Shown one piece after another: positions 4,201 to 60,082 of a DNA stretch of 64,000 nt. Source of the DNA: a virus; the IMG/VR virus record IMGVR_UViG_3300018007_000001. The stretch is one strand, 5' to 3'. Within the stretch, counting starts at the first letter, position 1. The number at the start of each line of letters is the position of its first letter. The position numbers and the translations under genes were made by a program. A model generated the notes under the pieces. It was not told the origin of the DNA. It did no database searches and was given only the letters and a program-made list of their open reading frames with translations.

Positions 4201-7200
4201 AGCCTCTTCCTCGACCGGCTTCAATTCGCGGCCCACTTTCGAATCCGTCGCAATCGTAATCGGCTTTGTCTTACCGGGAATTTCGACCTTGACCGAATCC
4301 TCATTGGCGGCAACGACGGTCATAGGTTGCCCGCGGTTCAAGGCTGGATGCGTTACCTGATCTCCGACGACAATCTCAATGGGGGCGGGGCGGTCTTTAA
4401 CCGCTACCCGCGCCGGCTCTTCTTCAGGTCGGATTTCGACATGCCGTGATGGTGCTTCCGGCTCTCGCTCAATGACATTGGGGGCTTGGGCTTCGGTTCG
4501 CTGTGCGGGCCGACTGGCGCCTCGTCTGGCTTCCTCTGCGCGTTGAATATCCGCGCCGCCTTCCCCTTCGCTTCCTGCTCGGATTCGCCCTCCGCGATAA
4601 ATTTGTCCCTCATCGCTTCGTATTTCCTCGGCATCGGTAATTCCCCCTTCTGGCGCTGGGCCAAGTTGTTTAGGCGCCGCAGGTCCGGGCGCTAATCCCC
4701 TCGGGCCCTTTGGCGGCGTTGGTTCTTGCGGAGGCTCGCCTTCGCCTAATTGAGCCTGCCCGCCTCTCAAGAATCTGTTTCCTCGGAGCCCGCCCCAGGT
4801 CTGGCCGGCCGAAGGAATTTCACCGACCGGCGTTCTGGCTTCTTCGGGCGCTGGTTCGACCGGCCCCCGAGGCGTGACATTTCGCATTTGGCCGGCGCGT
4901 TCACGAGCAAGGACGTCCCCGAGAAGGTCGCGAACCTCACCCCCAGCGCCCGGAATCTCCAAGGCGGCCCTGACTGCGGGGATAGCCTCAAGTGCAATCA
5001 TCTGAGCGACCGTTTCCTCTATTTCTTTCGCATTCATCAAGCGGCCCTGCCTGGCCCCATTAATAGCTTCAGCCGTCGCAAGAAACGTTCCGGCCCGTAA
5101 GGCGCGCTCGGCGGTCATCCCCACAACTTGGGCCATAACTTTTGCTTGAATCGCTCTGGCTGCGGTGTCGATTGCTTCCTCTTCGGTTCCGGCTGAAAGG
5201 GCCGCCTGAATCATTTCCCTGCTTGGTGTCAAACGGCCGACGAGAGCCTCGCGTAAATACCCGGCAAGCGGCGATTTTGTCACGATCGCATAAGGACCAG
5301 CCGCGGCTAATGCGGTCATGGCGGCGCTTCCCGGGCCCTTTTGTGCGCCCTCGAAAAATCCATAGGAACCCAAGCCGGTAATACCGCCCATTTGCGCGGA
5401 TAGAACGATGGGAAACATGTTCGCTATCAGCTTAGCGCCATGGCGAATCGCCGCGCTCGATTGAGCATCTTTCCCAACGCCATATTTGCCGGCGACATTC
5501 TCCGCTTCGTCCGACAGCCGATCCGCGAGGTCCGACCTTGAAATCTGTCCGTAGACTTTCCCCTTCTTCGCGTACTTTTCAGAAAGTGCGCCTCCAGTCA
5601 ATAAGTCAGAGAAAAATTGATTGGCTTTTCCTACGGGATGATCAAGGTAATCCCCGATGTTGTGAACGGTCTGTGCGAGCCGTGCCGCACTATCCAATAC
5701 GCCCCCAGCGGTCGTATCTAAAAGGCGCTTGGCGTCTGGGCTGTTTTGTAGCAACGCGGCGGCGGCTTTAATATCCGGCGTGATCTTCGGATCTTTGATC
5801 ACGGAGTTAAGGAAGTCATCGCCGGTAAAGTGAAGGCCCCTTGCCATCTCTTCAGTCTGCGTCGCCAACGGCCTGTAAAGCTGGCGGTCTCTCAGAAGGG
5901 CGCTCACGGTTTCAGGGTCAATATTGAATTCCGCAAGTCCTCCGTGTCCCTGGCCCTGCCTAATGATCGAATCAACTGAGCTTTTAGTCGACGTGCCGGG
6001 CTCAACAAGATTTCCTAACGGGTGCTGCCCGTACTTTTCGGTAAGAGCGGCCATTTCCGTGTCGGACAACCCCATCTGGCGGCCAGCGTTATCCTGAATT
6101 TCTTTCAGTATCTGATCGTCCGAATAGCCGGCCTTTCGAAGTCCCTCGATCTGGGCAACGGGAAACGTCGCATACGCGCCGCGGTTAGAAACAACGTTGC
6201 CTTCTGCATCGGTGACTTGCATTCCCTTTCGAGTTGACGAATAGGTCCGCGTCTCGCTGAAGTGATTCAGCGTCTCTTGCATCCAAGACGCATATTGTCC
6301 ATTCGGGTACATCTGAAGATAATTCTTTGCCGCGTCGATTTGCCCGCCAAAGTCCCCGATGTTTCTGGCCTGATGCCAGGCGCCCCAAAGTTCGTCTTCC
6401 GATTTCTGCTTAGGCTGCAGTTTTCCGGAAACATCAGGAAGCGCGCCCTCTTCTTCTTCGGGTGTCGCGGGCCGAGACGTTACGCTCGGGCCTACCTTGG
6501 GAGCCATCCAGTCGGTTAGATCGGGCGGCGCCTCGATGGTATGAGCGGTCGGGCTCGGCCCCATCCGACGTAGCTTTGTAACTAAGTCGAGATATTCAGG
6601 TTTGATCTTCTTATCAAGAACGGTGGCGCTTAGTTCCCCCAGCAGCCGGCCATGGGGCGCTAGGCTCTCGACAACCTTGTTGAGTTTATTCAATCGGGCG
6701 ACAATTTGGCCGCGCGTTGTGGGCGCTGGCGTTTCATCGGTTATTACATTTCCGCCTTCATCGACCAACTTCTCACCAACCCAATGAGGAGCACTCGGTA
6801 GCGCATACTTGGATTCGTTCGAGAATGTTTTGTGGTAGGGCGTTTTATAGGTGTCGGGGAAATGCATGCGACGGTCGAAAGCACTCAATGCTTGTTTAGC
6901 GTCCGGGTCGCCAGCCATCAGGGCCTTATAAAAACCGCGCATGTCGTAGTCCGCATTGGGTTCGTCGCGCCACGGTACATGGTTGGCTTTAACCCATTGC
7001 TGGAATTTTTGCTCATCCGCGGGTGCTAGCGTCGTGACGTAAGGCCCCGGCTTGGCGTGCGCGTTAGCAGATTCGATTCCCTCATACGGCCCAACCCTCA
7101 AGATCCGGTTCCACTGGTCATACAAACTCTCATCGGAGGCTACAGGCATACGCTGTGGCTTGGATTCTGGCTCTGTAGGCTCCTTGCCCACCTGGACAGC

Positions 7201-35219: not shown

Positions 35220-37742
35220 TCATCGGCCCGGCTGAATTTGGCCCTGCGGAGCTCCGGCTCCGGGCTGCCCCATGCCTCCCTGCAGGCCGGCTATGAGTGC
35301 GTCCAGTGGGTTTTGCTGCCCGCCCTGGCCCGGTTTTGCGCCGGCGGCGGATCCAATCATCCCGAGCATCGATTGAAGCCCCTGCATAAGCTCCTGAGTC
35401 TGGCGCTTCTGTACAAGCGAATTCTGATGCTCGTTGATGTGGTCGCGCATTTTCGTCATCGCGTCCAAATCGTGATCCGCTTCCGGGCCGTCCCACATCG
35501 CCATAATGCGGTTCTGGTGATCCGAGATATGAGCTTCGTCGTTGTCCTGGGGGTGAACGTGAATATCGTTCTTGTGAAGCACGCTGGACCATTCATTCTC
35601 CGGCGTCTGCGGAGCAAAGCCCGGCGCCGGCTCTTTGGAATACTTCGTGAAGTCAAGGCCGAAGGCGTCAAAGACGTCGACCAAAAACCTGTACTGCAAA
35701 ACCGGATCTTGCATGGCAACGGGGAAGCCGCGCATGAGTTGCATCAATTGCGCGAGTTCCTGTTTCTTGCCTTCCTTGACCTGGGCGTCATCGGCAAAGG
35801 ACAAGCTGAAATCATACTTGCCTTGGCGTTCTTTCGCGCCTAACTGAGCCCAGCCGTTTTGAAGCTCCCCATGCTCAAAAAGCCCCTGAGCGTCTCCGTC
35901 TGCGACGCGGAAGAAGTTTTGCTCGCTCCCAAACATGGTCCATTCGTCCCAAACCATATCAAGGAATTTCTTCAGATCCTCAGACAGCATTCGCATGTCG
36001 AGGGCCAATCTTACATCGCCCGCGCCCATGAGCAACCTTTGACCCCCCAGAGTCCGCGGGGCGTTGGGCTGTTCCATCCCTCGACCCATCGCGTTTTGAG
36101 TCAAGCCGGTAAGCATTTCTTGCAGGGAAATGAACATCTGCCAGAGTTCGGCGAAGGGCTGCAGGTTTGGGTTAATGGCCATCTGCTTGACGCCGGCCGC
36201 GTTCGCCACCCAAATAACATCGTACGTTTCGTATTTTCGGTTAGCGACGGACTCCCCGACATTCGGCTCGGCAAAAATCGGCGGGGCGATGGAGAAGTCA
36301 ACGGCCTGGATTACCTTGTTGGCAAGGACCGTCAATTCATTCTCGATGTCCTGAATCATTTCCATCAGGCCCATCGGCCAGGCCTGCCCGTCGTTCAAAA
36401 GCCGCATATCGAAGAATGGCCGCTTATTCGGCGTGTCCGGATAAACTTCGTCGGCGTCCTGTATTCCGACAATCAACCTCAGTCGATCCGAGTAACGGAC
36501 TATCAAATTGGATTCGACCATGTATTTACGGATTCCGTCGGTATCGATGAAAGTCCCGTCATCGGTGGGTTTGCTGGGGGAAGAAAACTCTTGATCTTCT
36601 TCGGCGCCTGGCGCCAATCCGGCATTAGCCGGCCGAATCTCCCCGGCCTGATCTTCTTTGCCCGGATCGAGGGCAACGGGCGTGCTTGGCGTTTCTTTGT
36701 TGAAATCGACGCCGGCCATAGTATCGCCGCCCATAGCGGTTTCGGCGTTCTCGGCGGGCGGCTGTTCGGCCCAGCGCCGCCAATGTCCATGCCACTCCCA
36801 AATTTCAATCTGCTCGCGTTGCATGGTCGTTGACGAATCCCTGAGAATTCCTTCGGCGAGGTCGTCTTCGATCAAAGACGGGTCTTTCTGAGAATCGCGC
36901 TCAAGCCCGAATCGCGCGTAGAGAACAATCTTCTTCCAGTTCTGTTTGATGCCCTGATACCAATCGCCCTCGGGATTCTGTTCACCCTCCGGCTCATTGT
37001 CCTGAGCGAGCATGTTCGTTGGGGTATCCCAATACCTCCGTATAATCCATTCGACGTTTTGAATGTCATCAAAGCCGGTCTTGCCTTCAAGCGAGGCGGG
37101 GAAAATAATCTCATCATTTCCGAGGGGCTGAATCTCCGGCCCTTCGTAGTAAATTTTCCGCTCGGTTTTTCGCTCGCCGGTTATCGGATCGACGGTTGTC
37201 TTGTTGTAGAATTTCGTGATCCAGGGAAGATGGGCGAAGGATCGGCCATGTTTCAGTCTCCGGAGAATCACAAGCGCCAGGGGTTTCATACAGGCCATGT
37301 TTTTGAAGACCTGCCATTTCATGGCGAGGCTCACCTTCTTGGCTATCTTGTCGTCTTGTGGAGTCGCGGGCTCGGCTTCGACCGTTGCGTTCGTTCCAAA
37401 GAGGGCATCGATTTCTCGAGCCCACTTCGTTAGAACCAATGCCAGCACAAACGGCACTTTGAAGTTTGATTTGCCTTGCTCGCCGCCTTGAAGCCCCACC
37501 CAGTTACGCCAGGATTTTTCCTGTTCGGCGCATCGGTCAATTCGGACGTTATGATCTTCGATCGCTCGCCAGTAGTCCTGTTGAATCTGGCGCATGAGTG
37601 CTTCCATTTCGCGCTTCGAGAATTTGAGCTGGGTGGTCGGCCGGCGCGGTTTCTGTTGTGTAGGCTGAGGGTCGTTGAATCCTGCGCGGCGCCGGAAGTG
37701 GCGGCCGAGCCAATCGAAAGGGTTGAGGGAAGCTATACCCAT
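35220..37742 (-). CDS. portal protein
   Basis: 840-aa ORF two genes downstream of TerL. Its size, position and G/Q-rich C-terminal tail fit podovirus portals. It carries one acidic low-complexity insertion. Confidence 0.65.
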   Translation of the reverse strand: MGIASLNPFDWLGRHFRRRAGFNDPQPTQQKPRRPTTQLKFSKREMEALMRQIQQDYWRAIEDHNVRIDRCAEQEKSWRNWVGLQGGEQGKSNFKVPFVLALVLTKWAREIDALFGTNATVEAEPATPQDDKIAKKVSLAMKWQVFKNMACMKPLALVILRRLKHGRSFAHLPWITKFYNKTTVDPITGERKTERKIYYEGPEIQPLGNDEIIFPASLEGKTGFDDIQNVEWIIRRYWDTPTNMLAQDNEPEGEQNPEGDWYQGIKQNWKKIVLYARFGLERDSQKDPSLIEDDLAEGILRDSSTTMQREQIEIWEWHGHWRRWAEQPPAENAETAMGGDTMAGVDFNKETPSTPVALDPGKEDQAGEIRPANAGLAPGAEEDQEFSSPSKPTDDGTFIDTDGIRKYMVESNLIVRYSDRLRLIVGIQDADEVYPDTPNKRPFFDMRLLNDGQAWPMGLMEMIQDIENELTVLANKVIQAVDFSIAPPIFAEPNVGESVANRKYETYDVIWVANAAGVKQMAINPNLQPFAELWQMFISLQEMLTGLTQNAMGRGMEQPNAPRTLGGQRLLMGAGDVRLALDMRMLSEDLKKFLDMVWDEWTMFGSEQNFFRVADGDAQGLFEHGELQNGWAQLGAKERQGKYDFSLSFADDAQVKEGKKQELAQLMQLMRGFPVAMQDPVLQYRFLVDVFDAFGLDFTKYSKEPAPGFAPQTPENEWSSVLHKNDIHVHPQDNDEAHISDHQNRIMAMWDGPEADHDLDAMTKMRDHINEHQNSLVQKRQTQELMQGLQSMLGMIGSAAGAKPGQGGQQNPLDALIAGLQGGMGQPGAGAPQGQIQPGR

Positions 37743-37748
37743 AAAGAC

Positions 37749-44955: not shown

Positions 44956-46328
44956 CTAGTACAAATCCGCTTGGTTGGACTCACCTTCGATTTCAGCCTC
45001 ATTCACGTTGCACATCTGAAATTGCAAGTACTGCCGGTTGAACCGGAGGTAACAGCTCCCGGTTGGCCCGTTTCGTTGCTTCGCCAAAATGAACTTTACC
45101 ACGGGGGTCTTACTGTCGCGATGTAGAAAACAAACTAAGTCCGCGTCTTGTTCGATCGCGCCAGATTCTCGAAGGTCCGACAAATGCGGCCGGCGGTTTT
45201 CTTTTTCGATGCCCCGGCTAAGTTGACTGAGAGCGATTACCGGGCAATTCAGATCCTTTGCCAGCGCCTTCAGGTCGCGGGACACGCCTGCAACTTCCTC
45301 TTGGCGGTTCCGGGCGGCCAGAGGATTAGACACGAGTTGCAGGTAGTCTACGATTACCAAGTCAATTTGCCCTTGTTCGAGCGCAAGCCGCTGGGCCCTG
45401 GCTCGAATCTGCGTCGACTTGAGCGCCGCTGAATCGTCAACCCAAAGTTTCATCTCCGAGATTCGCCGCCAAGCATCGCTGAGCCGATCCCATTCGTGAC
45501 GCTCCACGTAGGCGGATCTGAGCCGGTGAGAATCAAGTTGTGTCTGTCCCGCGAGCGTGCGCGACATCAATTGCTCGGCCGACATCTCGAGGCTGAAGAA
45601 GCCGACAACGCGATCAGACTTGGCCGCATACTCTGCAAAGTTCAAAGCGAGCGCCGTCTTGCCTTGGCTGGGCCTGGCGGCCAGGATAATCAAGTCGGGC
45701 GCCTGCCAGCCAGCCGTCAAAGCGTCGATATCCGGAAAACCCGAGCTCACCCCCGTGTTTGCCGCATACGAGCCCTGGTGTTGTTCGAAGAGCTGCTCAA
45801 TTCTGGAAATCACGCGGCCGGTTATTTCGCCCGCAGACTCAAGCCCGCCCTTCGCCGTTTGCCGGTCGAGGCTCAGAAGCGCCTTCTCGGCCGATGTGAT
45901 GATTTCCTGGCTTGAATCCTCGGCTTCAATCGCGCGGGCCTGCACCTGGGCCCCAAAGCGGATCAAAGCGCGAAGCGTCGACTTCTCGCGGAGGATTGGC
46001 AGGTACGGCTTCAGTGTGTTCGTCCTGGGAACTCCATCGATCAAGCTGGCGAGATAAGTAGCGCCGCCGACCTGCTCAAATTCTCCCTCTAGCCTGAGTG
46101 CGTCGCTGAGTGTGAGGAAGTCGACAACTTGGCCAGCCTGTGAAAGCTTCAGCATCGCGCGGTAAATTCTCCGGTGACTCTCGAGGTAAAAATCATCCAA
46201 GCGCGCCAAGTCGGATAATTCCGCCAGCACGAGGTTATCGAGCAACACGGCGCCTAAGACCGATTTTTCAATTTCCACGGCACACGGCATGCCTTTTTCC
46301 AAAAACGCATCACCATGAATTTGGTTTT

Positions 46329-46332
<4 letters not shown>
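44956..46332 (-). CDS. dnaB: replicative DNA helicase DnaB
   Basis: 458 aa. N-terminal PCAVEIEKSVLGAVLLDN. Walker A in LIILAARPSQGKTALALNFA. ...IVDYLQL..., ...VIALSQLSR...E and RQ.NGPTG are typical DnaB motifs. Confidence 0.9.
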
Positions 46333-47183
<851 letters not shown>

Positions 47184-53648: not shown

Positions 53649-54914
53649 CTATTCCCTCGACGCTTTTACCAGTGCCGCAATCGCCAGCTCGACTTTATCA
53701 TCGGGGACTTTGTTTAATTTGACCGTTCCGGCCGTCAACTCAAGAACCTCTTTCGCCCGGGCCGTCCCTTTAGCCTCCCCACAGGCGACAAAGGCGTCCG
53801 CCATGCGCCCTCGCAGGTCCGTAGGCTCGCCTTCCTCTTCCAAGGGAGTTTCGGGCTCGGGGACCTCTTCCGGCTCATCCTGGGGCGGCTCTGGTTCGGG
53901 AGCGCCCCTTTTAGCGCGAAGCTTGGCCGCCAGATCCTCGGCCTTGCCGTTTTTGCGCTCGGGCTCGGGGTTTTGGGACTCCTCTGGCTCGCCCTGGTCG
54001 GCTAAGGCCTGGGCGAGCGCCGCCTGCCATGTCGTCTCGCCCTTATTGATCGCCTTGTACAAATCGCGGAGATCGGACAGTTCGGCCGGCGTGGATTCCC
54101 CGAGGTCATGGCCGAGGTAGCGCTTGAGTCCTGAGGGTAAGACGTTTAGTTTCGCAAAGCCGTCTGAAATCTCCCGCTCGAATTTCTTGGGATCTTTAGC
54201 TATGTCACCGAAGCGGATCTCCAGTATTCGCGCCCGACACTCAGACTGTATGTCCCCCGGAATATGTCGGAGGATGCACTGCCGAAGAGCCTTAGACGCC
54301 AGTGCGTTTTGTTTATTCAAAACATCGTCGTCGGTTGCCGGTATTGTATGAACCGTCTCTCCGTAGCTGTTCAGCCTCGAACTTATAGCGATGTCGCAGT
54401 TCTTACACGCGCCCCGATCCTTATGCTTGCGCTCCACCGTCTTGCTCACTACGACCGTGGCGCTATGGGCAGTATTGGATTCCAGGTCAACGACAATGAT
54501 ATTGAGTAGGCGCTTGTCGTCGTCGTCGTAAACCGTGATCACCTGCTCGTCCATATTGGTCATGCAGCGCATGGCTTCCTCCGCGAAGCGAATAGAGAAC
54601 CCCTCGACGCCATCGCCGACCGGCTTCTTATACCACGCCGCGCCTTGCCGCTGAGTCTGACCCGGGACTGCGTACCCTTCGGCAAACCCCGGACGCTCGC
54701 ACGCGTCTAACAGTCTCCGGCGAACGTCGCTCCAATCCCGCGGGCGCCGGATGGCCATCACGAAGCGCGCCTCCACCATCGCGCGCGCCTGTGCGGCTAA
54801 AACCGCCCCTGCGGTTTCGCCCGTTGTCTCGATCTCTTCGGAGCCAAAACCCCGACGCTCAATTGTTCCACCGCCGCCCGATCGGGCTAGCGCCCTGCTT
54901 TGATCTTCAGCCAT
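53649..54914 (-). CDS. candidate single-strand annealing / recombination partner of the exonuclease (family not recognised)
   Basis: Start trimmed to MAEDQSRAL... (AAAGGA upstream). Conserved-looking core ...ARFVMAIRRPRDWSDVRRRLLDACERPGFAE...GFSIRFAEEAMRCMTN.... Acidic PEPEPPQDEPEEVPEPE linker. It lies downstream of the YqaJ exonuclease, separated only by a small Cys-rich ORF. Confidence 0.3.
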   Translation of the reverse strand: MAEDQSRALARSGGGGTIERRGFGSEEIETTGETAGAVLAAQARAMVEARFVMAIRRPRDWSDVRRRLLDACERPGFAEGYAVPGQTQRQGAAWYKKPVGDGVEGFSIRFAEEAMRCMTNMDEQVITVYDDDDKRLLNIIVVDLESNTAHSATVVVSKTVERKHKDRGACKNCDIAISSRLNSYGETVHTIPATDDDVLNKQNALASKALRQCILRHIPGDIQSECRARILEIRFGDIAKDPKKFEREISDGFAKLNVLPSGLKRYLGHDLGESTPAELSDLRDLYKAINKGETTWQAALAQALADQGEPEESQNPEPERKNGKAEDLAAKLRAKRGAPEPEPPQDEPEEVPEPETPLEEEGEPTDLRGRMADAFVACGEAKGTARAKEVLELTAGTVKLNKVPDDKVELAIAALVKASRE

Positions 54915-54925
54915 TATTAGTCCTT

Positions 54926-55105
54926 TCAGTGACCCAAATATTTCTGATACTTCGAAAGCGTCAGGCATCGCTCGCAAACACACTTGCTCACGCCATCGAC
55001 GCAAACACTCGTTAGAACCTGATCAATAGTCGCCGCGTCCTGGCACTCGACACATGCCCCTCTCGGGACTTTTGGCTCAGGCGCCGTGTTCATTGGAAAA
55101 CCCAT
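54926..55105 (-). CDS. small Cys-rich (zinc-binding?) protein
   Basis: MGFPMNTAPEPKVPRGACVECQD...CVDGVSKCVCERC. Start uncertain (55135, 55105 or 55093). Confidence 0.4.
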   Translation of the reverse strand: MGFPMNTAPEPKVPRGACVECQDAATIDQVLTSVCVDGVSKCVCERCLTLSKYQKYLGH

Positions 55106-55285: not shown

Positions 55286-56359
55286 TCATCGGGGAGCCTT
55301 CACACGCGGCTTTTTATATCTAAGTGTTCGATGTTTGCCCTGACGGACCACTTTATCGAACAGCCCCTCAAGCCTCGCGGTAAGCGGCTCTGTTAGCTTC
55401 GCATCAGCCGGCAAAACGTAAACGGCGCGCGCGAGTTCCATTAGCTCGACTTGAAGCGCGTCCAGATCCGCATGCCGCGCCCCGTTCTGCTCGAAATAGG
55501 TCAACAGCGCCCCATCTTCAAGCCTCCCAGCCTCAGCGTCCCCGAGCGCGCTTAGAATGATCCGCCGGTAATGCTCAACGTCGGACTCAAGATGCGAAAT
55601 CCGCTCTTTAGTTTTGGCCATATTCGCCCACGCCTCGGAAATTTCCGGTTTCAGAGAAACTATCTCTCCCTGAATCCTTCGGCGTCGCTGAAGCGTTTCA
55701 ACGTGCGCGACTTCGGAGAAATCCGCCGGCGGCGGAAGATCCTTGATAACGTATTCCCAGAATCTTTCGCCGGTTTGCCGCATTTCCAATATCAGATCGT
55801 CGGCGCGGGCCGCCCGGTAAACCTCAGACTGGAACATTTTCTTGTAAGCGGGAAAGTAGACCGGAATCCAGGCGATTTCACAGCCAGCGTGCATCATCTC
55901 CCAATTAGCCTGACAGATGACGTTTAGAGGAACGTCGTCAATAGAGTCGCCCCACCGCTCTTTTTGGATAGTTGACTTCGCTTCAACGACAGCCTCAATT
56001 TGCGGGACCATTGTCAGGTTAAGGAGAACGATTCCACACCCGTCTTTTAAGATGGGCTGTCCCGCCAAAACTGCTCCATCAAGATTCACGCAGAAGATAC
56101 CGTTGCTGTCAAATAACGTGGGTATGCCCGTCATAATCGGCTTTCCAATTTTGCGCGAGCACATCCGCATAATCGCGTCCTCAAGATCGTGCCCCGTTTC
56201 CGCGGGCTCAGAAGTCTTACCCTCTTCGAGCCGCCCGGTCTTGTCGAGCCAGACATCGGAGGCGTTTTTGTACGGGTCGGCCCCAACGATAGCGGCGATG
56301 TCGGATCCCCCGATGTACCGCTTTCGGGCTTCTTTCTGTTCAGGAGTTAATGGAGGCAT
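55286..56359 (-). CDS. YqaJ-type (lambda Exo-like, PD-(D/E)XK) recombination exonuclease
   Basis: MPPLTPEQKEARKRYIGGSDIAAIVGADPYKNASDVWLDKTG is the characteristic YqaJ N-terminus. 357 aa with a C-terminal helical extension. Confidence 0.75.
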   Translation of the reverse strand: MPPLTPEQKEARKRYIGGSDIAAIVGADPYKNASDVWLDKTGRLEEGKTSEPAETGHDLEDAIMRMCSRKIGKPIMTGIPTLFDSNGIFCVNLDGAVLAGQPILKDGCGIVLLNLTMVPQIEAVVEAKSTIQKERWGDSIDDVPLNVICQANWEMMHAGCEIAWIPVYFPAYKKMFQSEVYRAARADDLILEMRQTGERFWEYVIKDLPPPADFSEVAHVETLQRRRRIQGEIVSLKPEISEAWANMAKTKERISHLESDVEHYRRIILSALGDAEAGRLEDGALLTYFEQNGARHADLDALQVELMELARAVYVLPADAKLTEPLTARLEGLFDKVVRQGKHRTLRYKKPRVKAPR

Positions 56360-56532: not shown

Positions 56533-56904
56533 TCAACGAATTCTTGCGATTCGGCCCCGGCTTGTCCACTTGAACGGTATCGGAGCTAAACGTTTAGGAT
56601 TACGCAATATGATTTCAAAGTCCGCGCCGGTTTCCGTCATGGGATACTTGCGGCACTCGTATACCTCGACGGTTCCTACGATATGGCCTGGATGCCCCGC
56701 CCCTGCCTCAACCTTAACGGCGCGGTCGGCGGCCCATTCCGTCCCGTCTGGATCGCCATTGCCTTTTGTGTCGTATAGGTAAACCGTGCCCCGGTATCTC
56801 CAGGGGAAGGCAATAGTCTTGAACGTGCGCACGCGCCGCAGGATCAAATCGTTCCAAGGCCGCGTATTAGCAACCACGGGATAGTCTGGATTTAGCTCGC
56901 TCAT
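56533..56904 (-). CDS. hypothetical protein (ASCH-like by eye)
   Basis: 123 aa. ...RRVRTFKTIAFPWRYRGTVYLY...HIVGTVEVYECRKY...ILRNPKRLAPIPFK. Confidence 0.4.
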   Translation of the reverse strand: MSELNPDYPVVANTRPWNDLILRRVRTFKTIAFPWRYRGTVYLYDTKGNGDPDGTEWAADRAVKVEAGAGHPGHIVGTVEVYECRKYPMTETGADFEIILRNPKRLAPIPFKWTSRGRIARIR

Positions 56905-57059
56905 TCTTCAACCTCGATTCCGTGTTCTCGGAGAAAATCGGTCAAATCGTCCATAAGATCCTGCTTGTCGTAGTGACCGCGCCCGGAGACGTTATCCCCG
57001 AAAGCGTCCTTGATCCGGTAGCAAAATGCCTCAAGGTCGGCTTTAGTTAATCTTGGCAT
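56901..57059 (-). CDS. small ORF (52 aa)
   Basis: Hand translation gives MPRLTKADLEAFCYRIKDAFGDNVSGRGHYDKQDLMDDLTDFLREHGIEVEE. ATGA overlap with the downstream gene. Confidence 0.4.
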   Translation of the reverse strand: MPRLTKADLEAFCYRIKDAFGDNVSGRGHYDKQDLMDDLTDFLREHGIEVEE

Positions 57060-57294
57060 TCGAAACCTCGAATTCAATTATCGCCATTGGCACAATGCAC
57101 CAAAGTATTTTAGGACTGTGAACGTATGGCGATGTCACCAGCGCTTGGGCCGCAGCATCATCGTAGCAGACCGAGTAGGCCGTCTTGCCCCAATCGTTCG
57201 TATACTCGAAAACCGCAAAGCATTGCGGATCGCCTGGGTACACGCCGTCTCCGGCTATGATTTCATCAGCGATTTTCTTGCTAATTGTCGCCAT
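57043..57294 (-). CDS. hypothetical protein
   Basis: 83-aa ORF that overlaps the ATPase 3' end by 14 nt. Confidence 0.5.
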   Translation of the reverse strand: MATISKKIADEIIAGDGVYPGDPQCFAVFEYTNDWGKTAYSVCYDDAAAQALVTSPYVHSPKILWCIVPMAIIEFEVSNAKIN

Positions 57295-58774
57295 GTTCTA
57301 CCTCGAAATGCTTGATCTTCAGTTCGTCGCCCCTTTTGGTCGCCAGTTCCGTGATTCCGATGACGTCATGTTTCTCAAGCTCTTTGGCGACCTCAATCTT
57401 CGATTCTTCTTCCAGGGCGACCCAAAATTCCTCGGGGAAGGCCGCCAATCTCGCCGGATTCTTCTGAATCCAGATCGGCATAGCACAGCGCGTTCTTTCC
57501 CCGGCGCTCAGTCTGTGAAATGGCTCAAGCTCGCCATCGGGGTGAACAAACTGAAGAACTCCGTCTTCGACGGTAAGTGAGGGAATCCCCGCTTTTGACA
57601 GCAACCCTCCGAGTTGTCGAGGCACCGCCTTTGCCAATGCTTCGTATTTATCGGCTAGGGCGATAAGGGAGTCCCGCAGCTTTCGAGATTCTTCCGCCTG
57701 CTCGCACTTCTTGCGGTATTCTTCGGACTCGCGTGCGGCCTCAAGGGTTTCGCGAGCGAGTTTGACCGCAAGATCCGCTTTCTGGACGTCGGCCTCCGTT
57801 GCGCCAGTGATTTCGGTATCAAGGATAGCCTTTTTACGATCCCACTTGTCAGCTTGGCCTACAGCGTCCGCAGACGCTTGGCATGCGTAGTTTAGACTTA
57901 CCTCAAGAGCATCACATTCGCCCTGAGCAACCAGTAAGTCCCGCTCAAGTAGTGCAACCTTATCGCGAGCGCTCTTCAGTTGTTCCTGTAGGGCAAGCCA
58001 AGTGTTCCGCTTGCTGTCAATATCCGGCCGCTCGCCTAACGTTTCCTGAATAATCAACCGTTCCTCTTCGCGTTCCTTCCGCTGGCCGGCCGACCCCATA
58101 GCCTCCCGCTTGTCCCCGACCGCGCTGTCATAGGCTTTCTGAGCTTCCAAGAACGGGACGTCGACCAAGTTCTCGGGTTTAATCGGAGTCGCCTGTTGAC
58201 GGCGCCCTTCGGCCTGTTCCGCCGATGATATGAGTTCACGCTTCTTTTTGTGGAGGTCGCGGCTGATCATACCGGCGGCCTCGACCGGGTCGACCTGCCC
58301 GAAGTCATCAAGCCCGACCAGATCGTCCAAGAAATCAAGCGCCCGTTCGTCGCCCTGAACCAGCTCGGAGATTAGCTCTCGGTCGGTTTTCAGATTTAGG
58401 ATGGACACTAGTGCCCGAATCCGCGCAGCCTCAGCCGCCTTCTTGTCCTTTAGGCCAGGGTCAATCACTGTCGCCAGGGGACTCACGCTTGCGAGCGAGA
58501 CTTCCGTAGACTGCCCGGTCTTCGACTTCGAGCGCGTGACTTCCAAGACGACTACATCGTCAATTAGAAGCTTTCCCTTTTGGCTTCCGTCCCGCGGCTC
58601 AATAGGAATATCAACGCCGCCGGCCCGCGTGATCGCATTCAGGAAGATGGATTTCCCTGATCCGTTGGCGGCCGTCAGGAGATTCATTCCCGGCGAGACC
58701 TCGCAAACAAAATCATGGATAGGTCCAAGATTCTGAGCCTCAAGCTTTTTGGTTGGTTTCTTTTTCGCGCTCAT
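57281..58774 (-). CDS. SMC/RecN/SbcC-like ABC-type ATPase with central coiled coil
   Basis: 497 aa. Walker [12 protein letters not shown] near the N-terminus, ~300 aa of E/R/K/A/L-rich coiled coil, and the signature-like LSAGERTR near the C-terminus. Walker B is atypical (LAAFPEEFW). Confidence 0.6.
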
Positions 58775-59294
58775 CTTTAATCCCCCAGCCCCGAATTTTC
58801 GCCACCGTTTCAGCGTAATCCAAAAACGCCATAACCTCGCGCCTGGTTTTCTTGCCCGCCCAATACTCGCGGGCTTCAGCCATCGACTTTGAGCGACAGC
58901 CTACCTGAACCATTAAGACCCCCTCTTTGAGCCACGCGAAGGCTTGCCAGCCATCGGGCCAGCCGCCGCCTATAATGGAGTCGGCCCCTCCGAGGTCGGC
59001 CCCTCTGAGGTTGGCCCCTCTGAGGTTGGCCCCTCTGAGGTTGGCCCCTCTGAGGTAGGTCCCTCCGAGGTCGGCCCCTCTGAGGTTGGCCCCTCCGAGG
59101 TCGGCCCCTTCGAGGTAGGCCCCTCTGAGGTCGGCCCCTCCGAGGTCGGCCCCTCTGAGGTCGGCCCCTCCGAGGTTGGCCCCTCTGAGGTTGGCCCCTT
59201 CCTTAGCGCGGGCTTCCAGCGAATCTGTCAGTGATTCCGCTTGATCTTCGCGGATCAAATCGCCCGTGCGCCAATTCTTAATTTGAATCTTCAT
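58740..59294 (-). CDS. pentapeptide-repeat protein
   Basis: 184 aa with about 14 consecutive G-A-(N/D)-L-(R/G/E) units (aa 33-105), followed by a globular C-terminal domain ([37 protein letters not shown]). Confidence 0.85.
58981..59200. repeat. 15-bp tandem periodicity (GGCCCCTCYGAGGTY)n
   Basis: DNA image of the pentapeptide repeats, about 14 units with point differences. Confidence 0.9.
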
Positions 59295-59297
59295 CTC

Positions 59298-59483
59298 TTA
59301 CCCCTCAAATATCGAATCAACATCAATTTCCACGCACCCCTCATAATCAGCGAGCGCCTTCCTTACTGCTTGCTCGACGTCAAGCTTCGCCTGAAGCGCG
59401 AGCTTTGATTTTTGCTCTGAGTCGATTTTGACGCTGGGGTTGAAATTGATCGCGGCCCCGACCGCTATGGCTATTGCTTGCAT
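59298..59483 (-). CDS. hypothetical protein (start trimmed)
   Basis: MQAIAIAVGAAINFNPSVKIDSEQ..., with AAGGAAGGA 8 nt upstream. 61 aa. Confidence 0.45.
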   Translation of the reverse strand: MQAIAIAVGAAINFNPSVKIDSEQKSKLALQAKLDVEQAVRKALADYEGCVEIDVDSIFEG

Positions 59484-59488
59484 GGTTC

Positions 59489-60082
59489 TTATCCTTCCTT
59501 TCTCCACGGCGGCGGCTCTTCCATCTTCGGCCTTGGTTTCCTTGGTCCCTCGCCGCTCAATTGAAACAGCGCCGTTTGCTCCTCGACGGAATTTGCGACA
59601 TCGACATCAAGTTCGCACGCTTCAATAACTACGCGCTCCTCACTATCGTATCGGCGCTTGATATGGAGGTCGGCGAAGCGCGAATCATCCGACACCCAGC
59701 CCCCTATCTTCATGGCGTCGAAACAGGCGCGTGCTATCTTGTCCTGATCCTTGCCGACCTTTGGGTATTTCGGGGCGGTCGGCTTTAGCTCTCCGTTTGT
59801 CCTGAAATGCGCAGCGGGCCTTTTAACGTACACCGTTATTCTGGCGAACATGGCCTCATCGAGTGGGGCATCCGGCCTGACCTCGCGCATTTCAGCAACG
59901 GCTTGAGAGCGCCAGGGCTTGAGGTTTTTGTTGTCATCAAGCATCACGGGGAATTTATAAGGCCGCCCCGTTTTCTTGCTGATGCCTTCCTTTAGGAAGG
60001 TTGTTTTTGAGCCCTGAGTAGCGGCTGGGCCGTAAATGACAACCATGCCGCGCCAGGGAACGAGGGGAGAATCGGCGCTCAT
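59489..60082 (-). CDS. rusA: RusA-family Holliday-junction resolvase
   Basis: ...YGPAATQGSK...KPWRSQAVAEM...ARITVYVKRPAAHF...KVGKDQDKIARACFDAMKIGGWVSDDSRFADLHIKRRY follows the RusA pattern (RP...KPD.DN..K...DA....DD). Confidence 0.7.
   Translation of the reverse strand: MSADSPLVPWRGMVVIYGPAATQGSKTTFLKEGISKKTGRPYKFPVMLDDNKNLKPWRSQAVAEMREVRPDAPLDEAMFARITVYVKRPAAHFRTNGELKPTAPKYPKVGKDQDKIARACFDAMKIGGWVSDDSRFADLHIKRRYDSEERVVIEACELDVDVANSVEEQTALFQLSGEGPRKPRPKMEEPPPWRKEG

Follow-up and report, generated by a model that had tools for sequence, protein, structure and literature searches.

Does a pentapeptide-repeat protein (PRP) work together with the ATPase whose gene its own gene overlaps? The question is raised by a 64,000-nucleotide (nt) stretch of the viral record IMGVR_UViG_3300018007_000001, referred to here as the window, in which a PRP gene runs into a gene for a structural maintenance of chromosomes (SMC)/Rad50-like ATP-binding cassette (ABC) ATPase. 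The window represents most of the genome of an uncultured tailed phage and encodes an SU10-type portal (35223-37748) and a DnaB helicase (44959-46347). An earlier note, made from the sequence alone, had described the two genes as a DNA mimic coupled to a Rad50/RecN-like clamp. The parts of that description that concern the genes themselves were confirmed: both open reading frames (ORFs) are present on the minus strand, they overlap by 35 nt, and they are part of a recombination module, with RusA on one side and a YqaJ exonuclease on the other.

58740..59294, minus strand: PRP gene, 184 amino acids (aa) (ORF, translation, Pfam PF00805, AlphaFold2 (AF2) model)
57281..58774, minus strand: SMC/Rad50-like ABC ATPase gene, 497 aa, protein P0002 (ORF, Pfam AAA_23, phrog_1499, AF2 model)
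58740..58774, minus strand: 35-nt overlap of the PRP 3' end with the ATPase 5' end, in different frames (sequence)

The PRP stop codon occupies 58740-58742 and the ATPase ATG is located at 58774 in the other frame; this start is supported by ATPase homologues, whose N-termini align with it from the first residue. Fusion of the PRP and ATPase ORFs by a programmed frameshift was dropped as a candidate, since the ATPase homologues start independently at the same residue. We lean towards the view that these are two independent accessory genes of an early recombination operon, translationally linked in the window and not an obligate pair.

Association between the PRP and ATPase families

The specific PRP-ATPase pairing proposed in the earlier note was mostly refuted by a survey of co-conservation, the criterion that the note itself had set. 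For this analysis, loci of ATPase relatives were drawn from viral and metagenome collections. Fourteen loci from the family of the window ATPase, a set that does not include its closest relatives, P0003-P0009 (47-60% identity), contained neither the PRP nor its C-terminal domain within ~8 kb of the ATPase. As a weak indication for P0003-P0009, none of the PRP-family matches listed had a longest contig equal in length to theirs. Examination of five whole ATPase-bearing viral records, one of them 100% complete, revealed no pentapeptide protein (PF00805). The reverse comparison revealed that an SMC-like ATPase was absent from 15 of 17 other PRP-bearing viral records, the exceptions being L015 and L019. 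A genome search with PF13476 missed one known family member in the control, and the broad ATPase profile A3 was therefore used instead. A3 matched 5/5 records in the positive control and 0/15 PRP-bearing records, three of which are at least 98% complete. Taken together, these data demonstrate that the PRP and ATPase families mostly occur without each other.

Several observations pull in the other direction. The 35-nt overlap suggests coupled expression of PRP and ATPase in the window phage. L015 repeats the gene order, with a PRP followed by a 117-aa ORF, a phrog_1499 ATPase (E 4.7e-86), a DUF3799 exonuclease and a phrog_3657 protein. This locus is very distant from the window: the two ATPases are beyond BLAST detection of each other, and the L015 exonuclease is not homologous to that of the window. 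In L019, the PRP is found 3.4 kb upstream of an AAA_23 ATPase. Given the order in L015 and the co-occurrence in L019, the PRP may have some functional link to the recombination module.

We also searched more widely for both genes. A tblastn search of 50,697 GenBank phages with the ATPase, two distant members of its family and the PRP C-terminal domain returned no matches, and scans of genome contigs identified no relative of the PRP or the ATPase. Literature searches retrieved no work on this ATPase family, nor on a PRP encoded in the recombination module of a phage. The window genes add to two kinds already known, the uncharacterized pentapeptide proteins of phages and the SMC-like ATPases encoded next to phage recombinases.

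The pentapeptide-repeat protein and DNA mimicry

Identification of the upstream gene as a pentapeptide-repeat protein was upheld, with a score of 93.6 bits against a cut-off of 20.2 for Pfam Pentapeptide PF00805 (E 4.8e-27). The protein comprises an N-terminal cap (residues 1-33), 14 pentapeptides (residues 34-105) and a 79-aa C-terminal part (residues 106-184).

58980..59195, minus strand: PRP repeat region, residues 34-105 (15-nt tandem DNA array)
58743..58979, minus strand: PRP C-terminal domain, residues 106-184 (alignments A2, A4 and A5)

The repeats are of the A(N/D)L(R/G)G type. The earlier note counted about 14 perfect repeats; two of the 14 (AYLEG and TYLRG) are imperfect. At the DNA level the array has a period of 15 nt, 14.7 copies and 89% matches, as measured with Tandem Repeats Finder (TRF). 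Alignments A2, A4 and A5 revealed the invariant motifs PxGW, VGC, YW..K..RREV and DYAE in the C-terminal domain. The last 11 codons of the gene, which fall in the 35-nt overlap, are poorly conserved. Two window ORFs that run antisense or out of frame across the repeats, 58944-59234 (+) and 58749-58892 (+), also 'match' the PRP family in other loci; these are artefacts of the repetitive sequence and not genes.

The AF2 model of the PRP (pLDDT 82) contained a beta-hairpin/helix cap, a repeated-five-residue (Rfr) solenoid of ~3.5 coils, and a four-stranded sheet with two helices. The solenoid is predicted to form a right-handed quadrilateral beta-helix. Its best structural and sequence matches were small cyanobacterial Rfr proteins (Np275/Np276 and Alr5209), with VIA Z values of 14.3 and 13.3, the former to Np275 (root mean square deviation 3.1, 94 residues); MfpA (Z 11.0) and AhQnr (Z 9.5) were also matched. 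The cyanobacterial proteins differ from the PRP in that they lack a counterpart of its C-terminal domain and are not known to be connected with phage recombination. Fold searches with the PRP C-terminal domain gave no convincing match (best Z ~4), and the domain is covered by no Pfam family.

A search with the C-terminal part identified relatives that are 54-100% identical in that domain and carry very different numbers of repeats. At least 319 clusters of proteins ≥136 aa matched the C-terminal domain profile at E ≤ 1e-3. The 120 PRP-family clusters among the matches listed were 136-247 aa in length and nearly all annotated with PF00805. Judged from these sequence comparisons, the PRP family is defined by its conserved C-terminal domain, is widespread in phages and is separate from the ATPase family. 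Members of the family have 2-18 repeats, and their net charge spans -9 to +6. P0012 (134 aa) and P0013 (179 aa) were 100% identical to the window PRP outside the repeats, and near-identical PRPs bear 4, 13 or 14 repeats. The homogenized flavour of the repeats also differed by lineage, with ANLAG in L016, ADLSG in L020 and A(N/D)L(R/G)G in the window. This variation points to concerted evolution by slippage and copy-number polymorphism, or to assembly collapse of the array. As leads only, ESM Atlas matches suggest viral proteins in which the PRP-type C-terminal domain follows hexapeptide, YdcK-type or bactofilin solenoids, and others in which it stands alone.

The PRP had been classed as a DNA mimic, and the explanation built on this holds that a Qnr/MfpA-like B-DNA mimic is paired with a Rad50/RecN-like clamp, serving as a decoy for host nucleases or SMC-type defence or as a regulator of the clamp. 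The overlap of the two genes, their order in L015 and their looser co-occurrence in L019 all fit such a pair, as does the superposition of the solenoid on MfpA and Qnr structures; the predicted right-handed quadrilateral beta-helix of A(D/N)LXX repeats is a feature that the PRP has in common with MfpA, Qnr and AlbG. The properties of the protein argue against mimicry. MfpA and Qnr are recognized by a strongly acidic surface and a conserved, DNA-duplex-like rod length, whereas the PRP is neutral to basic (net charge of the repeat region 0; whole protein +2, isoelectric point 8.7), its solenoid makes ~3.5 coils, and neither length nor charge is conserved in its family. Its NCBIfam scores were far below the cut-offs for MfpA (34.3 bits vs 360) and Qnr (20.6 bits vs 240); penta_Alr5209 was matched at E 1.1e-17, which is also below the cut-off of that model. 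The PRP further differs from MfpA, Qnr and AlbG in bearing an extra conserved C-terminal alpha/beta domain and in being encoded by a phage beside recombination genes. Because the PRP is not acidic, scores low on the MfpA and Qnr models and belongs to a family in which charge and length are not conserved, B-DNA mimicry of the MfpA/Qnr kind appears unlikely. The survey counts speak against the pairing, both the PRP-bearing records that lack an SMC-like ATPase and the ATPase-bearing loci and whole records that lack a PRP. We consider a mimic-clamp pair very improbable, and the 'DNA mimic plus clamp' system does not stand.

Of ~19 distinct PRP loci, 8 encode an annealing protein or exonuclease no more than ~3.5 kb from the PRP (the window, L015, L019, L021, L027, L031, L035/36 and L039). 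On these neighbourhood counts, the PRP is linked to the early recombination region more than to the ATPase. The most attractive alternative for the PRP is a Gam-like role against a host nuclease. As a Gam/Abc-like inhibitor of host nucleases or repair that heads recombination modules, the PRP would bind its target protein via the C-terminal domain, with no recourse to DNA mimicry, and so protect the ends used by the exonuclease, annealase and ATPase. The lambda gam and P22 abc genes hold the equivalent place beside their recombinases. The recurrent proximity described above is consistent with this role, the type of neighbouring annealase varies (ERF, RecT or phrog_3657), and fast-evolving, length-variable repeats would suit an arms-race gene. 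Set against this, a distance of 12 kb separates RecT and the PRP in L017, a complete phage, and RecT/ERF was not found in four further PRP records tested (L020, L026, L032 and L033). The PRP also has no similarity to known anti-RecBCD proteins, the domain proposed to bind the target has no convincing fold match, and the association may merely reflect the clustering of early genes. On balance we regard a Gam/Abc-like role as doubtful. The PRP family numbers hundreds of clusters in phages and combines a solenoid of hypervariable length with a conserved C-terminal domain, and is a candidate host-interaction gene.

Eight PRP-bearing loci had another homologous gene in common, ~200-400 aa in length (stop-to-stop), which lies 1-7 kb upstream of the PRP and is encoded on the other strand. 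A phmmer search with the L033 copy identified no sequence match in the PDB.

L016:1364-2341, L024:277-1056, L026:6436-7149, L027:3351-4331, minus strand: gene shared by eight PRP loci
L031:2926-3525, L032:723-1946, L033:2494-3501, L035:2157-3083, minus strand: gene shared by eight PRP loci (continued)

The ATPase family and its recombination neighbours

The second gene was verified as an SMC/Rad50/RecN-like ABC ATPase carrying a Walker A motif (AANGSGKS) and an ABC signature (LSAGERTR), with a match to Pfam AAA_23 at E 2.6e-09. A weak match to phrog_1499 (E 3.7e-07) extended over residues 9-489 on profile positions 6-418 of 427. The match to PHROG 1499 is thus full length, yet the window ATPase is a remote member compared with the ATPase of L015.

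58649..58672, minus strand: Walker A AANGSGKS, residues 35-42 (G40 and K41 invariant in the family)
57593..58288, minus strand: antiparallel coiled-coil insertion, ~residues 163-394, apex near 272-279 (AF2 secondary structure)
57488..57511, minus strand: ABC signature LSAGERTR, residues 422-429 (family columns)
57422..57448, minus strand: degenerate Walker B region LAAFPEEFW, residues 443-451 (HMMER alignment to Rad50 3qf7, family columns)

The AF2 model (pLDDT 88.5) revealed a split ABC head with an antiparallel coiled coil of ~230 aa, and not the ~300 aa suggested earlier. Foldseek and VIA-align matched the model about equally well (Z ~8-9) to the heads of SMC, Smc5/6, Rad50, RecN, RecF, MukB, JetC and PtuA. 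With scores this similar for many heads, the fold says 'SMC-like' and no more.

The Walker B region had been described as atypical, with LAAFPEEFW in place of hhhhDE. HMMER alignment to Rad50 3qf7 placed P447-E448-E449 opposite I-D-E and placed L454-E455, the D-loop equivalent that follows the Walker B region, opposite the D-loop L-D. Both this alignment and the spacing to the D-loop put E448 and E449 in the D/E slots, so the motif reads hhhPEE. The Walker B is non-canonical, as claimed, and its acidic residues are not wholly missing.

We also examined how widely this feature is distributed. A word-indexed search identified nine relatives at 24-60% identity, while an exhaustive profile search identified 2,159 clusters (50% identity) at E ≤ 1e-3 and 1,106 at E ≤ 1e-30, the latter nearly all full length (460-540 aa). 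Motif columns were counted in 156 representatives. G40 and K41 were invariant (156/156), the signature residues S423, G425 and R427 were conserved in 155, 153 and 128 representatives, respectively, and the D-loop position was acidic in 123. In contrast, the three candidate Walker B columns were acidic in just 46, 13 and 78 of the 156, and a canonical Walker B DE was present in at most one. Since the canonical DE is so rare, the atypical Walker B characterizes the family as a whole and is no peculiarity of the window gene. A literature search retrieved no description of a family-wide loss of Walker B. A homodimeric SMC-like family naturally lacking it would be a useful 'EQ-like' model of ATP-gated clamps. 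The slot of the H-loop histidine (residues 475-476, window 57347-57352) contained T in 140/156 representatives, followed by E in 82 and A in 72; this Thr-Glu/Ala could be a replacement catalytic or sensor residue.

Among known systems, Rad50/SbcC (Thermotoga maritima Rad50 3qf7; T4 gp46) resembles the ATPase in having an N-terminal half-head with Walker A, an antiparallel coiled-coil insertion and a C-terminal half-head, and in being encoded amid DNA-end processing and recombination. Rad50 was the best PDB sequence match (E 1.2e-07; VIA Z 9.0), and the features expected of a Rad50/SbcC protein, namely a split head that carries Walker A, signature and D-loop and into which a coiled coil is inserted, were all present. 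The differences are equally clear. The window ATPase family lacks the canonical Walker B DE and the CxxC zinc hook (no CxxC anywhere in P0002; CxxC within residues 150-400 in 1/156 family members), and the coiled coil is short. No Mre11/SbcD was found in the window or in the five related records; the neighbours of the ATPase are a YqaJ or PD-(D/E)XK exonuclease and an annealing protein. RecN and RecF are similar in other respects: both are SMC-like heads that act in recombination with no dedicated nuclease subunit, with a short coiled coil and a similar size (RecN ~550 aa), and 4ad8 (RecN) and 5z69/2o5v (RecF) were among many similar fold matches at Z ~8. However, the ATPase scored 15.2 bits on the RecF model TIGR00611 against a cut-off of 172, and no RecN model was present among its NCBIfam or Pfam matches. 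RecN and RecF also retain a functional Walker B, unlike the window family, which is phage-borne and tied to RecA-independent exonuclease/annealase modules.

Analysis of the ATPase loci revealed an exonuclease, annealing protein or RusA within a few kb of the ATPase in the window and in L001, L003/11, L005, L008, L009, L010, L013, L014, L015, L019 and L023. YqaJ exonucleases were present in L003/L011, L005 and L008, and a DUF3799 PD-(D/E)XK nuclease in L009, L010, L013, L014, L015 and L023. ERF was identified in L001 and RusA in L001, L013, L014 and L015, while in L019 the PDDEXK_1, RecT and 769-aa AAA_23 ATPase genes are consecutive. In L004, read by eye, the start of a YqaJ-like ORF overlaps the ATPase stop codon. 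By-eye readings of RecT-like and PD-(D/E)XK-like proteins in L005, L009 and L006 were not counted, and phmmer searches of three neighbour ORFs (L009, L006 and L033) against the PDB gave nothing useful. In line with the earlier note, no Mre11/SbcD-type partner was detected nearby: Metallophos was not found among the window neighbour genes at 51.9-64 kb, window ORFs ≥100 aa contained no GNHD motif (a crude test), and Metallophos PF00149 was present in 0/5 ATPase-bearing related records. The recurrent nuclease partner is instead a YqaJ or DUF3799 PD-(D/E)XK exonuclease. Across the loci covered, the ATPase family almost always adjoins RusA, an annealing protein and/or an exonuclease of the YqaJ or PD-(D/E)XK type. 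SMC-like and AAA ATPases beside recT/redbeta genes have likewise been recorded in a published survey of Firmicutes phages (PMC8093625).

L004 also encodes, at 6136-6732 (+), a 198-aa, solenoid-like protein with about nine tandem octapeptides, GGTIERI(D/Y). It is located 1.3 kb upstream of the ATPase-YqaJ pair and does not carry the PRP-family C-terminal domain.

The neighbours of the ATPase also bear on whether it might be a phage-carried sensor for defence or superinfection exclusion, of the OLD/PARIS/Septu/Lamassu kind, and no recombination factor. PADLOC matched it to PtuA (E 2.8e-06), mad3 (E 3.2e-06), LmuB and AriA, and retron PtuA structures were among the fold matches. All of these PADLOC matches were weak, however, and except for mad3 and LmuB they were confined to the N-terminal Walker A region. 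Defence ABC ATPases such as PtuA, AriA, LmuB and OLD-like proteins would be recognized by a full-length match together with an adjacent nuclease effector, and no TOPRIM, HNH or other effector adjoins the window gene. Its conserved neighbours are recombination exonucleases, annealing proteins and RusA, and it resides in an early operon of a phage with its own DnaB and not in a variable island. We hold a defence role to be highly unlikely.

Under the favoured reading of two independent accessory genes, the biochemical roles that follow are inferences, which go beyond what was computed (the structure of the genes, their families and motifs, the fold predictions and the counts of neighbours). The ATPase family keeps Walker A, signature and D-loop in the absence of a canonical Walker B. 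ATP binding would still drive head-to-head engagement (dimerization), while hydrolysis would be slow or dependent on a partner. Gated by ATP, the ATPase could then clamp or tether DNA ends or intermediates of recombination. It would serve the annealing protein and the neighbouring 5'-3' exonuclease (YqaJ in the window; DUF3799 PD-(D/E)XK in relatives) and would amount to a 'Rad50 without Mre11' for recombination of the exonuclease/annealase type. The PRP would act on a DNA-metabolism factor of the host or the phage via its C-terminal alpha/beta domain, which is conserved and basic; its solenoid would be a length-hypervariable rod (2-18 repeats), with no B-DNA mimicry and no need for the ATPase. 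Two points count against these roles. Early-gene clustering could partly explain the proximity of the ATPase to recombination genes, and P0002 may still hydrolyze ATP, given E448 and E449 in the D/E slots.

A bolder version, which we put forward only tentatively and think improbable, is that phrog_1499-type ATPases constitute an unrecognized third subunit of RecA-independent phage recombinases, as a DNA-end tether gated by ATP binding that has YqaJ or PD-(D/E)XK exonucleases and annealing proteins as partners instead of Mre11, and that the PRP/C-domain proteins are new module-associated modulators, for example host-nuclease inhibitors with a length-tunable solenoid. Burkholderia RecET operons require 'hypothetical' genes to be fully active in their native host (PMC8313284), which shows that recombination accessory genes can matter. 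If the ATPase does assist exonuclease/annealase recombination, this would explain why some phage RecET/Red-like operons function poorly outside their native hosts when the 'hypothetical' accessories are missing (PMC8313284), and recombineering tools could be improved.

Operon layout and neighbouring genes

The operon reads, 5' to 3' on the minus strand, HTH (helix-turn-helix) regulator, 156-aa ORF, RusA, 69-aa ORF, PRP and ATPase, and continues with three small overlapping ORFs, the YqaJ/RecE-like exonuclease, two small ORFs and the phrog_3657 protein. A promoter-like site at 60759-60731 accompanies the HTH regulator at the operon head.

59489..60082, minus strand: RusA-like Holliday-junction resolvase, two genes upstream of PRP (Pfam RusA, E 8e-08; phrog_140, E 4.2e-18)
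59298..59507, minus strand: 69-aa ORF between RusA and PRP (ORF list)
56533..57294, minus strand: three small ORFs (83, 58 and 123 aa) directly 3' of the ATPase (ORF list)
55286..56359, minus strand: YqaJ/RecE-like recombination exonuclease, 0.9 kb downstream of the ATPase (Pfam YqaJ, E 4.5e-13; phrog_434, E 2.7e-45)
53649..55004, minus strand: phrog_3657 protein (421-451 aa), candidate annealing protein (phrog_3657, E 6.3e-49)

Pfam and PHROG profile searches gave no family match for the 69-aa ORF. The 83-, 58- and 123-aa ORFs also had no family matches, and tblastn identified no counterpart of them in related loci. These three ORFs overlap each other and the ATPase stop, so that overlaps connect five successive genes, of which the PRP is the first.

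The phrog_3657 protein occupies the annealase slot of the operon and is accompanied by the ATPase and an exonuclease in L014 and L015 as well as in the window. Its named similarities are weak (Pfam HBoV_NS1-like_N, E 5.8e-4; PDB 4kw3 (NS1), E 0.043), and the nearest named ESM Atlas clusters, Rad52, RecT and Sak, were all low-scoring. On these similarities the protein may be an annealing protein or a Rep-like origin-binding protein.

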